IMG/VR virus record: IMGVR_UViG_3300037313_001148
Span: 26,670-90,669 of that record
DNA from: a virus
Taxonomy: Duplodnaviria > Caudoviricetes
Direction: 5' to 3' (one strand)
DNA length: 64,000 bases
Below, one piece after another: positions 32,692 through 46,564 of the stretch (the stretch's first letter is position 1; each line of letters opens with the position of its first letter). The translations under genes and the position numbers were made by a program. Under the pieces are notes generated by a model that was given only the letters and a program-made list of their open reading frames with translations, was not told the DNA's origin and ran no database searches.

Positions 32692-33459
32692 ATGCCCGAA
32701 GTCAAAGTAATCGATCTTGCCCACGTCAATGTAGACGGCGTGGTCGCCGGCAGCGTGGTGGACGTGCTCGACAACTATCGCCCGATCGAGGGCATCAAAG
32801 ATCTCCTGTTCGCGGCGGTCCAGCGATGGTCCGACGATCGCGAGCAAGCCCACGAGACGGCCGTCGCTTCACTCCGCGAGTGTCACTGCAAGGAATGCGA
32901 CGACCTGAAGGCCACACACGCGACGGCCTTGCAAGATACCTACGGCAAACATAGGGCGGAACTCGACGAAGCGGCACAGGCCCACGCCTCGAACCTCCAG
33001 GCGGCGACTGATAGCCATGCGAAGGCGATGGCCTCACTGAAGGAGCAACTCCAGGCTGACCGCCGTGCCGAAACGGACGAACTACAGGCTCAGATCACTG
33101 AACTCCACAAGGTGATTGACGAACAAAAGGCTGTGACGGGCAAGCATCAGACGGCACTCGACGAAGCGGCGCAGGCTCACACCGAAGCGATCCAAGCGAT
33201 CGCCGATAGCCACTCAGTCGCCCTTGCCACGCTCAAGGAGCAACTCCAGGCCGACCACCGCGCTGAAACTGACGGACTGCGTTCGCAAATCGCCGAACTC
33301 CTTAAAGTGATCGACGAGCAGAAGACCCTGATCGAGACGCTTGGCGGCACCGAGCTTGGGCAACAGATGGCCCGCGAGAAGCGATGCCGGGAACTGCGTG
33401 AGACGATCGCCCGGCTCCAGGCGGAACATGACGCGATGGCCGAACCGCAAGGAGCATAA
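32692..33459 (+). CDS. coiled-coil protein with a 65-aa internal repeat
   Basis: ctcgacgaagcggc(a/g)caggc at ~32962 and ~33157; probable ATG 32692. Confidence 0.7.
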   Translation: MPEVKVIDLAHVNVDGVVAGSVVDVLDNYRPIEGIKDLLFAAVQRWSDDREQAHETAVASLRECHCKECDDLKATHATALQDTYGKHRAELDEAAQAHASNLQAATDSHAKAMASLKEQLQADRRAETDELQAQITELHKVIDEQKAVTGKHQTALDEAAQAHTEAIQAIADSHSVALATLKEQLQADHRAETDGLRSQIAELLKVIDEQKTLIETLGGTELGQQMAREKRCRELRETIARLQAEHDAMAEPQGA

Positions 33460-43379: not shown

Positions 43380-43616
43380 CAGAGCTATCAGTGCCGCACT
43401 GCCATTCGTCTCCTGAATTTTGGTAATCCAGCCGCCCTCTCTATCATCGCATTCCCTTGCCTGGAAGTCAAATAGAATTTTCAGCTTTTTTCAACATTCG
43501 GCCTTCGTCACGAAATCTTCGCTTTTCGGACTTGCTATTTCCCGGTACAATTTCCCTGGAAAACAGTCAACGCCGAGATTCGGAGAACTAATTCCCCAAA
43601 ACAGGAGGCAGCGATC

Positions 43617-43841
43617 ATGTCTACGGAACAGCGAGTCACAATTGCCCTCTTGCGAGGCCAGCCGTCCTATAAAAAGGCTCTCAAGAGAAGACTAAAGAAT
43701 ATACAAATCATCCACGGTGTAAAGATCCCTCTTGAACAGCTTTTGGAACAGGGTATCAATCTCGCCCTGGCCACCTACGGCGAACAGCCGATTTCAGGCC
43801 GTTTGCGGCGTAATCCTGAAAAACCGTCTAAGCCTACTTGA
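43617..43841 (+). CDS. small putative DNA-binding protein (RHH-like)
   Basis: AGGAGG SD; 74 aa, basic and helical. Confidence 0.5.
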   Translation: MSTEQRVTIALLRGQPSYKKALKRRLKNIQIIHGVKIPLEQLLEQGINLALATYGEQPISGRLRRNPEKPSKPT

Positions 43842-43866
43842 CTTCACACGAGCAATCAGGGATATT
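43838..43866 (+). promoter_or_regulatory. promoter overlapped by a PAM and protospacer
   Basis: TTGACT (43838-43843), 17 nt, GATATT (43861-43866); predicted +1 near 43873. Confidence 0.6.
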
Positions 43867-43872
43867 CCAAAA

Positions 43873-43974
43873 GTCGTTCCCTTTGCAGGGGACGTGGATT
43901 GAAACACGCGAGCAATCAGGGATATTCAGAATTCTCCCGGCACCACCGTCTCGGTGTTCGGCCCCCTACGAAAC
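43873..43974 (+). CRISPR. solitary type I-C repeat + self-targeting spacer + degenerate second repeat (crRNA-like unit)
   Basis: gtcgttccctttgcaggggacgtggattgaaac (33 nt, hairpin, GGATTGAAAC end); the spacer start matches 43846-43867 at 21/22; a hairpin-containing ...gaaac ends at 43974. Confidence 0.8.
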
Positions 43975-43992
43975 AAGCAATCATAAGAAAGA

Positions 43993-44814
43993 ATGTCGAT
44001 GGTGACATTTGAAGAACTTTCCGAGGATATTCCCGATCATCTCAAGCCGTTTCTTGACCGCGAAGTTCCACCGCCGAATCTGACCCCGCTTCAACGGAAG
44101 TGGCGGAATGACGGCCTGGTTATCCTTCGTAAAATCATCGACCCAGCCCTCATTGATGCCTACTGTGAGCGATGGATCAAGGACAAGCCATTTCATAAGA
44201 AGTGGCGTCCGAACGTTCCATACATGGATGTTCATGAAATTCGGGATCTATGTCTAGCCGGGCACCTGATGGACACGCTCGGGCATCTGGTTGGCGAAGA
44301 GATGGGCCTTCACCTTAACCTGTGCAATTGGGTGAGCACGGAACGTGATTGGCACCAAGATTCATACCTTAACCCTACAGAAGTTTACAATCATTATCTC
44401 GCCGTATGGTTTGCGCTCGATGATATCGATCCGGATTCGGGGCCGTTCGAGTATATTCGCGGATCCCACAAATGGCCCCTCATGAGCCGTCAGAAAGTTT
44501 GGGACGCCGCGCCTTTCGATATGAAAAATTCTGCGGAATGGAATGACCACTGGCCTACCCTGACTCAAGGGTTTGTTTCCAGGGCGTGCGACGAGAAAAT
44601 TCTTCAAGAGAATGCCGTTGTCGATCGATTTATTCCGGCGAACAAGGGTGATGTCCTGGTCTGGAATGGCGCTCTCGTTCATCGCGGATCGGCTCCCAGG
44701 GTTCGCGGCCTCGAACGCCGTGCCCTGATTTCGCACTATAGCGGCTTGAATCATCGTCACGACATGCCTGTCCGTAAAAGGCATAACGATCAAGGCATGT
44801 ATTTTGTTCTCTAG
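43993..44814 (+). CDS. phytanoyl-CoA dioxygenase (PhyH)-family 2OG-Fe(II) dioxygenase
   Basis: WHQDSY...VWFALDDI...GPFEYIRGSH...GDVLVWNGALVHRGS. Confidence 0.9.
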   Translation: MSMVTFEELSEDIPDHLKPFLDREVPPPNLTPLQRKWRNDGLVILRKIIDPALIDAYCERWIKDKPFHKKWRPNVPYMDVHEIRDLCLAGHLMDTLGHLVGEEMGLHLNLCNWVSTERDWHQDSYLNPTEVYNHYLAVWFALDDIDPDSGPFEYIRGSHKWPLMSRQKVWDAAPFDMKNSAEWNDHWPTLTQGFVSRACDEKILQENAVVDRFIPANKGDVLVWNGALVHRGSAPRVRGLERRALISHYSGLNHRHDMPVRKRHNDQGMYFVL

Positions 44815-44841
44815 AAAACAATACATCAAAGTAACATTATA

Positions 44842-45516
44842 ATGCCAAAATTCCCAGAATCAAAGCTTGCTCATAAATGGCTCGACGGACTGCGTGGAAT
44901 CGAGATCGGCGGTTCAGCCCACAATCATTTTAATATCGCCGGATGTATCAATGTCGATTACACCGACGAGATGACCGCCCACAAGCAAGCCGAAGTCAGG
45001 TTTTGCGGCGAATTTCTCCCCGTTGATGTCATTGCGGAGGCGTGGCGCCTGCCGTTCCAAGACGGCGATTTTGATTATGTTATCAATTCGCACGTAATTG
45101 AACACTGTCCCGACACAATCTCAACGATCCTCGAATGGCACCGCGTTGTGAAGGATGGGGGCCTGATCTTCTTCAACGTCCCTAACAGAGACGACGGCCC
45201 CGAAGATAAACAGCACCCTTACACAGACCTTCACCATCATCTTGCCGATTGGAAGAGCAAGGCGACCATTGAGACGCATCCTTGCGTTTCCGGCCAGGGG
45301 CCGCGCGGGCACTACCATCATTATCGCCTCGAAACATTCCTTGAACTCCTGGACATGTGCTTCGGGGATTCCCTTCCCGTCCTTGAGCGTCTAGAGAAAG
45401 ACGACAAAGTTGGCAATGGTTTTATGATTGTATGCAGAGTCGTCAAAGATCAAAAGATCACAAAGTTCTATAGAGATATCGATGCCTTACCGAATCTTGA
45501 TGAACGTCTCGGATAA
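44842..45516 (+). CDS. SAM-dependent methyltransferase (type 11)
   Basis: GIEIGG...LPFQDGDFDYVINSHVIEH...RVVKDGG. Confidence 0.9.
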   Translation: MPKFPESKLAHKWLDGLRGIEIGGSAHNHFNIAGCINVDYTDEMTAHKQAEVRFCGEFLPVDVIAEAWRLPFQDGDFDYVINSHVIEHCPDTISTILEWHRVVKDGGLIFFNVPNRDDGPEDKQHPYTDLHHHLADWKSKATIETHPCVSGQGPRGHYHHYRLETFLELLDMCFGDSLPVLERLEKDDKVGNGFMIVCRVVKDQKITKFYRDIDALPNLDERLG

Positions 45517-46564
45517 CACCGCCTGCGCCCTGTACCGTGCCGTCCTCCCCTGGGCCATGTGTCACGCCGATCTCGCCAAAGAAGGTATCCAGCTAGATAT
45601 TTCAGAGAAGCTTAGCAATCAATATGAATATGATTGCTACATCTTCCATAGGCTTGTGATGCCTTATTTTGTGCCGACCTTGGCAGATATGCGGTTCTTC
45701 AATCGCCGCAAGATCGTCTGGGACACCGACGATGATCTCCTGGAAGTTCCAGCCTGGAATCCGGCTCGCGAGATGATCGGTCAGGGTAAGACTGACATGA
45801 TGAAGGCGTGCCTCAGCTACTCCGATCATGTCACTCTGACGACGGACATTTTTAAGAATGAATACGCGAAAGCGTATCCGACATTCTCAGATCGAATCAC
45901 GGTTCTTCCTAACCTCATCGACCTTGACGCCTGGAAATTCGAGCCGTGCCGCAAGCAATCCGGTCCTGTTCGTGTCATGTGGTCGGGATCAATGTCTCAC
46001 CAGGCAGACGTTGATCTGATCGGGGACGTTGTTTTCAAACTGGTAAAGAAATATAAGGATAAGGTTCATTTCATTTTTATGGGCCTGATCCCGTCCCAAC
46101 TTCGCATCAACAACGAAACTCTTCCCGACCTTCGCAATCGAGTCGTGCAGGTCGGCGTATGTGAACTGCCGTACTACCCGCACAACCTGACGCTGTTCTC
46201 GCCTGATATTTCCATGATTCCGGTGGTCGATTGCCGGTTCAATCGAGTCAAGTCCAATATTAAATACTTGGAAATGACTCTTGCCGGAGCGGCTTCTGTT
46301 GCCTCGGATCTTGGGCCTTACGCGGCCACAATCGAAGACAGTAGGGACGGCCTGTTATGTCAGGATGCCGAAGATTGGGAGGAATCGCTTTCCCTGCTGA
46401 TCGAAAATCCGTCGAAGGTCCGGGAGATGCACAAGGCGGCAAGACAAAAAGTTATCGATAACTATTCATGGCAGTCGCCATCCAAACAAAAGTGGATGGA
46501 TTTTTTCCGGCGGCTGGCAAACGAAAAGAGCACGGAACAAGTCCGTGCTCTGACCGCTTCTTAG
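45482..46564 (+). CDS. glycosyltransferase (GT-B, family 4-like)
   Basis: WDTDDDLL...VMWSGS..H..D...FNRVKSNIKYLE...ASDLGPY. Confidence 0.9.
   Translation: MPYRILMNVSDNTACALYRAVLPWAMCHADLAKEGIQLDISEKLSNQYEYDCYIFHRLVMPYFVPTLADMRFFNRRKIVWDTDDDLLEVPAWNPAREMIGQGKTDMMKACLSYSDHVTLTTDIFKNEYAKAYPTFSDRITVLPNLIDLDAWKFEPCRKQSGPVRVMWSGSMSHQADVDLIGDVVFKLVKKYKDKVHFIFMGLIPSQLRINNETLPDLRNRVVQVGVCELPYYPHNLTLFSPDISMIPVVDCRFNRVKSNIKYLEMTLAGAASVASDLGPYAATIEDSRDGLLCQDAEDWEESLSLLIENPSKVREMHKAARQKVIDNYSWQSPSKQKWMDFFRRLANEKSTEQVRALTAS

Follow-up and report, generated by a model that had tools for sequence, protein, structure and literature searches.

We analyzed a solitary CRISPR repeat of the type I-C class in a soil phage, the virus record IMGVR_UViG_3300037313_001148 (Caudoviricetes) of IMG/VR, which spans 90.7 kb and is 78% complete. 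The window, meaning the whole stretch of DNA analyzed, is the right-hand 64 kb of that record; coordinates are window positions unless marked "genome", which refers to the whole phage record. The repeat (43873-43905) is followed by a pseudo-spacer whose first 22 nucleotides (nt) recur just upstream, directly behind a protospacer adjacent motif (PAM). The main added value of the analysis is that such a PAM-anchored bracket is recurrent around viral lone I-C repeats. From left to right, the locus contains the following features.

43617..43841, plus strand: open reading frame (ORF) of 74 amino acids (aa) from the ORF list, function not assigned, whose ribosome-binding site (AGGAGG) is strong and whose stop codon falls within the P1 -35
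43838..43866, plus strand: P1, predicted sigma-70-like promoter (-35 TTGACT 43838-43843, 17-nt spacer, -10 GATATT 43861-43866; 9/12 in the promoter scan)
43843..43845, plus strand: TTC, the optimal type I-C PAM, read in the sequence directly 5' of the upstream copy
43846..43867, plus strand: protospacer-like upstream copy of 22 nt from the duplication search, including the P1 -10
43868..43872, plus strand: CAAAA filler, read in the sequence between the upstream copy and the repeat
43873..43905, plus strand: solitary type I-C CRISPR repeat of 33 nt, with a hairpin (43875-43894) and an 11-nt 3' handle (43895-43905) ending GGATTGAAAC
43899..43926, plus strand: P2, second promoter-like site (-35 TTGAAA, 16-nt spacer, copied -10 GATATT; 9/12 in the promoter scan)
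43906..43940, plus strand: pseudo-spacer, nominally 35 nt, whose first 22 nt (43906-43927) match the upstream copy at 21/22 and whose remainder is native leader
43941..43974, plus strand: claimed degenerate second repeat, not counted as a repeat (a GAAAC pentamer and a small unrelated hairpin only)
43993..46564, plus strand: downstream operon of three genes (Pfam, PHROG)
43993-44814, plus strand: PhyH-type dioxygenase (Pfam)
44842-45516, plus strand: S-adenosylmethionine (SAM) methyltransferase (Pfam)
45428-46564, plus strand: GT1 glycosyltransferase (PHROG glycosyltransferase match)

A sequence-only reading of this DNA had described the 33-nt hairpin repeat, the upstream copy next to a TTC, a promoter around that copy, and a lack of cas genes. 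This core observation holds, and the interpretation built on it is partly supported; the seed position of the mismatch, P2, and three sister repeats are new with respect to it. The repeat is present as a single copy in the window and in the whole 90.7-kb record, and it displays the canonical I-C fold, with an 8-bp hairpin at repeat positions 3-22 (-11.3 kcal/mol) and then the 11-nt 3' handle. The direct-repeat search paired 43845-43867 with 43905-43927 (22/23 identical, flanking base included). Within it lies the 22-nt copy pair (43846-43867 and 43906-43927, 21/22), 60 nt apart, whose downstream copy starts at the first base after the repeat. The upstream copy was the only PAM-flanked match of the pseudo-spacer in a genome-wide scan. 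Only two local 22-mer duplications with up to one mismatch exist in the 64-kb window, and the TTC frequency is 2.4%. Thus, the match at 43838-43940 goes beyond chance. The other local duplication (33040-33062 and 33235-33257) lies in-frame in a coding region with a period of ~195 nt and probably encodes a coiled-coil segment that recurs in a structural protein.

The sole mismatch of the copy pair (43848 A vs. 43908 G) falls on seed position 3 and makes a G.T wobble between guide RNA and target strand. Positions 6, 12, and 18 present no drift between the two copies, and this, together with the single seed mismatch, points to a young duplication rather than to a long-kept pairing. Joining 43843-43867 to 43928-43940 gives a TTC-flanked 35-nt full match to the pseudo-spacer. 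TTC is the best PAM for I-C interference, and native I-C spacers measure 33-37 nt (PMC5602111). In the Legionella I-C system, one seed mismatch lifted plasmid survival only from ~1% to ~9% (PMC5602111), so a mismatch in the seed need not stop binding.

As had been proposed, the promoter scan (a prediction) places the upstream copy between the TTGACT -35 and the GATATT -10 of P1, which ends 6 nt before the repeat and has its predicted start at ~43873, the first base of the repeat. P2 is built from the 3' end of the repeat (TTGAAA, 43899-43904) and the copied -10 (43921-43926), reaches the same scan score as P1, and is flanked by AAC, which is not a PAM. Since this PAM-less site lies downstream of the target, transcription of the downstream genes would be independent of P1. 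Their gating by Cascade, which the sequence-only reading had suggested for the dioxygenase, methyltransferase, and glycosyltransferase genes, is therefore unlikely. The terminator scan found none between the repeat unit and the dioxygenase gene. On the minus strand, a promoter-like site (ATGTCA-17-TATGAT, 9/12, 44008-43980) is directed leftwards from the dioxygenase start; if it is active, its transcript would be antisense to both pseudo-spacer and repeat.

A degenerate second hairpin ending in gaaac (43974) had also been claimed, and this claim had to be dropped. In the downstream 65 nt, GAAAC alone aligns, and 1688 of 2000 shuffles score as well; a second repeat of the kind that follows the pseudo-spacer in cellular CreR/CreA units is thus not above chance in the phage unit. 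The second repeat of CreR can be too degenerate to recognise (bioRxiv 10.1101/2023.03.10.532045). The Rfam scan of 43600-44100 returned no family at E <=1.

The survey of other viruses covered 138 distinct lone I-C repeats among those listed from IMG/VR, with one handle variant. A bracket was scored when the first bases after the repeat recurred within 120 nt upstream, every sixth position being ignored. Besides the present case, 9 of the 138 (~7%) presented a bracket, with a copy of 9-17 nt. All nine copies are on the same strand and begin 9-35 nt before the repeat, with a gap of 0-21 nt; the control matches were 0 on the opposite strand, 0 downstream, and 1 with a shuffled pseudo-spacer. Including the present case, the flanks of the ten upstream copies are TTC (4), TTT (3), CTT, CTC, and TCT. 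They are pyrimidine-only in 10/10 (P 2e-11, from local composition), and nine of the ten are among the seven strongest PAMs for I-C interference (P 2e-9, or 1.5e-8 when the present case is left out). In Legionella I-C, these seven give at least 95% interference (PMC5602111).

Copy length stays at or below 22 nt in all ten cases (P 0.0014), and the hairpin and the handle are intact in every one of them. The right end of the insert is always the last base of the repeat and the left end falls 0-21 nt before the repeat, with fillers of 0-21 nt in the nine other cases. The copies are located at varied features, including ribosome-binding sites, a stop/start junction, and leaders. Among the loci that were scanned for promoters, only the present case and L195, where the promoter-like site ends 41 nt before the repeat, have one nearby. 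In another phage (L166:2170-2230), a stop/start junction between two genes is the exact insertion point of the lone I-C repeat. The accompanying duplication of 10 nt, flanked by CTC and mismatched at position 6, keeps both the stop codon on the upstream side and the ribosome-binding site on the downstream side.

For type I-F, a CC-flanked bracket was found in 0 of 59 viral lone repeats; the two matches of that survey are two-repeat mini-arrays, and the controls scored alike. Two viral I-F loci, L347:5340-5440 and L358 (minus strand, ~2647-2750), begin with a degenerate repeat and a spacer, which are followed by an intact repeat and another spacer similar to the first. They are thus mini-arrays of two nearly duplicate spacers rather than brackets flanked by a PAM.

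The phage carries three further solitary I-C repeats (genome 15384-15415, plus strand; genome 6058-6088, minus strand; window 59116-59148, plus strand), which lie kilobases from the 43873-43905 unit. The stems of the four repeats differ and the handle CGTGGATTGAAAC is common to all, with a canonical fold in three of the four (the 43873-43905 unit and two of its three sisters). The self-match search of the genome gave none for the three sister repeats. All four units are co-oriented with the gene behind, and three have a promoter-like site upstream; four intact, co-oriented units in one phage, three of them with such a site, argue for selection on the RNA. Searches for cas5d, csd1, and cas7 in the phage record (78% complete) were all empty, in agreement with the sequence-only reading. 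Two of the sister repeats (genome 15384-15415, plus strand, and genome 6058-6088, minus strand), both located to the left of the window, stop 23 and 27 nt short of a start codon, so that the ribosome-binding site falls inside the pseudo-spacer. The same order of repeat, ribosome-binding site, and ATG is found directly before cas5 in a planctomycete I-C locus (G286, L130:1452-1500). Loading of Cas5d and Cas7 on such leaders could block translation.

In a comparison with I-C arrays, the repeat shares its stem exactly with the repeat of a 16-copy array from a Cohnella genome (L037), and it comes close to the one in the array of a complete I-C locus from a Pirellulaceae metagenome-assembled genome (G001). 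Searching for exact-stem repeats gave no match in the viral and genome collections and one match in metagenomes, L002, which is a cellular cas-regulating unit. Among Planctomycetota genomes, 55 of 401 have Cas5d, and I-C loci with closely similar repeats occur there. The phage pseudopilin matches only generic GspG and pilin models.

The L002 unit (L002:6594-6760), on a metagenome contig with nearly the same repeat, consists of one lone I-C repeat and a terminator, both located upstream of cas5d. Over 19 nt, the pseudo-spacer of this unit pairs with the region of the cas5 promoter, next to a CTT PAM, and the mismatches are confined to positions 6, 12, and 18; it is a textbook case of a cas-regulating guide. 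Pairing of the same kind was found in L039, L072, and the planctomycete G003 over 17-22 nt, with TTC, TTC, and TTT as PAMs. For these natural I-C regulatory guides (L002 included), which pair over 17-22 nt, no self-cleavage is expected. L072, from Methylococcaceae, is a verified locus with the order cas3, lone repeat, and cas5-csd1. In L072:6036-6146, a consensus promoter (TTGACA-17-TACTAT) lies 14 nt upstream of the lone repeat between cas3 and cas5, and the target is TTC-flanked, on the opposite strand, 8 nt upstream of the -35, at the cas3 end. Besides, an antisense lone repeat was observed within the cas operon of two planctomycete I-C loci, between cas7 and cas4 in G001 (contig 65, L105:9920-9960) and between cas3 and cas5 in G003 (L106:10265-10305). 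The G003 pseudo-spacer partially matches a TTT-flanked site just upstream of cas5.

Several known systems resemble the phage unit. RacrIC1, an RNA anti-CRISPR (Racr) described by Camara-Wilpert et al. 2023, is a lone I-C repeat that inhibits I-C immunity (PMC10651486). Like the Racr units, the phage unit is a single repeat that can be assigned to a subtype, sits in a phage that lacks cas genes, and has a promoter predicted close upstream. By analogy, it would be expected to bind the repeat-recognising Cas proteins and to compete with the CRISPR RNAs (crRNAs) of the host. Racr units are defined with a promoter up to 250 bp upstream, and here the predicted P1 (9/12) ends 6 nt before the repeat. 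However, the sequence behind the phage repeat copies a PAM-flanked site upstream, which is not a described Racr feature, and the unit sits in an operon leader with no terminator, its decoy activity being predicted.

The CreR/CreA regulators (bioRxiv 10.1101/2023.03.10.532045; PMC10120712) also carry a repeat with its handle intact, and the 17-22 nt of their pseudo-spacer nearest the PAM pair with a PAM-flanked site in or next to a promoter; for them, including the I-C units between cas3 and cas5, binding without cleavage is likewise expected. L072 even shares the order of target, promoter, repeat, pseudo-spacer, and operon. Unlike them, the phage unit lies outside a cas locus, targets its own promoter rather than a cas or toxin promoter, lacks drift at positions 6, 12, and 18, and has its mismatch at seed position 3. 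CreR and viral Cracr RNAs assemble full Cascade (bioRxiv 10.1101/2024.10.29.618823). The latter are likewise crRNA-like RNAs encoded by viruses, and they could make host Cas proteins into a DNA-binding repressor and also compete for them, with I-C examples reported (bioRxiv 10.1101/2024.10.29.618823). What defines a Cracr RNA, however, is its resemblance to a regulator of the host and a target at a host cas or creT promoter, with at least 9 PAM-proximal nt in common with one or the other, whereas the pseudo-spacer of the phage unit has its only PAM-flanked match within the phage.

According to a review, virus-borne mini-CRISPR arrays also consist of a repeat and a spacer that rely on host Cas proteins (Medvedeva et al. 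2019, via PMC11656645). Like their spacers as summarized there, the 35-nt pseudo-spacer would fully match an insert-free relative; the phage unit differs in having one repeat only, where the spacer of such arrays lies between two repeats (of which the second may be truncated), and no matching relative was found in IMG/VR. Transduction of CRISPR loci, in which spacer/protospacer identity joins phage DNA to an array, was reportedly described in staphylococci (type II/III) by Varble and colleagues in 2019 (Nat Microbiol, via PMC8616872). That is the kind of event we invoke for the origin of the phage unit, although that work is not known to describe a single-repeat insertion with a PAM-anchored duplication.

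Taken as a whole, we tentatively favour the reading that the unit is a Racr-type decoy or crRNA-like RNA gene, that the bracket is mainly the footprint of its capture, and that Cascade on P1 is a plausible side effect. At its origin, a host I-C complex would have attacked a protospacer within the phage promoter, with a break ~22 nt from the PAM in this phage and 9-22 nt from it across the ten cases. The PAM-distal end would then have been lengthened by copying from the host array or pre-crRNA, across the spacer start, the repeat, and a bit of the previous spacer, and finally rejoined; the CAAAA filler would be the tail of the preceding host spacer. The outcome would be a truncated copy on the PAM side and a full copy without a PAM, so that the phage escapes that spacer.

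At present, transcription from P1 would begin at the repeat, and host Cas5d would cleave off the hairpin, 11 nt before 43906, leaving the handle and the pseudo-spacer. This RNA would occupy Cas5d, Cas7, and Cas8c. The pseudo-spacer corresponds to the promoter core, and if a full Cascade assembles on this RNA, it would have a TTC-flanked 22-nt target on each copy of the phage genome. It may then occupy P1, where an R-loop of 22 nt would not be long enough to license Cas3. In this way the decoy would limit its own synthesis, while the PAM-less P2 would keep the downstream genes on. Such feedback on P1 would probably be a side effect, less likely than not to be measurable, and we do not regard it as an established design.

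A capture origin would explain the PAM, the exact register, the fixed right and ragged left ends of the insert, and the filler. It would also account for the same strand, the position of the copy just upstream of the repeat, and the variety of the features struck. Longer copies would still be cut, which sets an upper limit on copy length under such an origin, and the phage would gain at once by escaping the attacking spacer.

Several points weigh against our preferred reading. The capture origin is something that we infer, and a search of the Racr paper, of the preprint on Cracr RNAs, and of reviews turned up no description of such a mechanism. Around 90% of acquired I-C spacers have TTC (PMC5602111); with TTC at only 4 of the 10 flanks, the spectrum fits a binding-competent PAM at least as well as an acquired spacer. 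With no CC-flanked bracket in the 59 I-F repeats, the data lend no support to a repair scar that would be general to type I. Binding to P1 may be weakened by the mismatch in the seed, and a decoy under negative feedback has no obvious benefit for the phage.

The ten cases may also be read as a family of self-targeting guides (~7% of viral lone I-C repeats), in which a 9-22-nt guide against a PAM-flanked site just upstream, each time short enough for binding without cutting, would turn host Cascade into a repressor of the phage's own promoter or leader and a Cas-sensing switch; we find this rather doubtful. The 43838-43940 unit is the clearest example of this putative family. A capture origin and a guide function are not exclusive as readings of the bracket, and a linked possibility is that the units were born by repair of a Cascade-induced break that copied the host array or pre-crRNA, which would be a natural route to anti-CRISPR RNAs resembling prime editing. 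A guide function predicts binding-competent PAMs and short matches, both of which were found, but not the rigid target position or the fillers. If the unit were a purpose-built feedback switch, with the self-match under selection, Cascade and the phage RNA would repress P1, tuning the decoy and/or reporting Cascade activity downstream. The optimal TTC PAM, the exact register, and a target that spans the P1 -10 and spacer suit that idea, and the 22-nt match is within the range of natural non-cleaving I-C guides. So do the PAM spectrum of the ten cases, which is that of interference-proficient and not of acquisition PAMs, the lack of any copy >22 nt, and the natural I-C locus L072, wired alike with its target by the promoter that drives repeat, pseudo-spacer, and cas5 operon. 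We nevertheless consider a purpose-built switch unlikely: P2 bypasses the target and leaves the downstream genes ungated, the mismatch is in the seed with no drift at positions 6, 12, and 18, unlike in L002, and the three sister repeats have no self-match. Moreover, the nine other copies share the strand of the repeat in every case, begin 9-35 nt ahead of it, and often lack a promoter, a pattern that points to an insertion footprint, whereas the targets of cellular regulators lie at varied distances and on either strand.

That the repeat and the duplication are an inert scar, the neutral leftover of host-array recombination or of an escape event with no present RNA function, would agree with the young look of the copy pair (21/22) and with an origin that alone explains the bracket geometry. 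It is quite unlikely when each of the ten cases, the present one included, retains an intact hairpin and handle, when the phage keeps four intact units, each co-oriented with the gene behind and three with a promoter-like site upstream, and when lone I-C repeats are proven inhibitors elsewhere (PMC10651486). The restored TTC-flanked 35-nt full match (43843-43867 with 43928-43940) would also allow a one-guide weapon: the pseudo-spacer would equal the uninterrupted promoter-leader of insert-free relatives, so that Cascade-Cas3 would cut competitors or drive copying of the unit, the carrier being safe with its truncated copy. No second repeat is there to set the 3' end, an empty site with A would keep the position-3 mismatch, and the 19-mer of the pseudo-spacer occurs in no other IMG/VR phage, with no empty-site relative there, which makes this use of the unit decidedly improbable. 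Repression of host cas or creT promoters is known for crRNA-like RNAs of viruses, I-C included (bioRxiv 10.1101/2024.10.29.618823), and the pseudo-spacer could be such a Cracr-type mimic, with the phage copy incidental. Yet the 401 Planctomycetota genomes gave no PAM-flanked match (the true host may lie elsewhere), their three matches with three mismatches are at control level, all in coding DNA with non-PAM flanks, and 30 planctomycete cas5 loci gave no match; we consider a mimic highly improbable. Regarding a duplication unrelated to CRISPR, in which an operator, iteron, or promoter copy flanks the repeat by chance or the assembly is at fault, both copies do form promoter-like sites and a small uncharacterised protein is encoded just upstream. 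Against it stand the exact register at the repeat end with the TTC flank and the recurrence of the bracket in nine unrelated phages with PAM-like flanks (P 1.5e-8 excluding the present case), and a graph misjoin cannot yield a partial copy followed by unrelated filler. The bracket geometry is CRISPR-specific, and an operator, iteron, plain promoter duplication, or misassembly is very unlikely. By reasoning, we also rejected off-target integration by Cas1-Cas2 as the source of the duplication, as the duplications measure 9-22 nt and so differ in length from the repeat, and an assembly chimera, as the truncated copy and the filler share no word.

Regarding the neighbouring genes, the 74-aa ORF had no match in the Pfam, PHROG, and NCBIfam profile searches, no viral relatives were found for it, and its AlphaFold model is helical, of low confidence, and uninformative. 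The dioxygenase homologues in IMG/VR present identities up to 49%, other neighbours, and no I-C repeat, and the contig of a 59% homologue is absent from IMG/VR. The exact dioxygenase protein is present on 6 contigs.

Phages are known to use lone CRISPR repeats as decoys (Racr), and host cas genes are silenced by some guide-like RNAs of viruses (Cracr). The PAM-anchored duplication, in the present case and in nine unrelated phages, ties such units to a Cascade-recognised site in their own phage. If the bracket is a record of capture, the origin of RNA anti-CRISPRs would be open to a simple escape experiment; if it is a promoter or leader switch, this would be the first virus that wires its own gene expression to the CRISPR complex of its host. 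Either way, the repeat, the PAM, and the short upstream copy together provide a cheap search rule for viral data.

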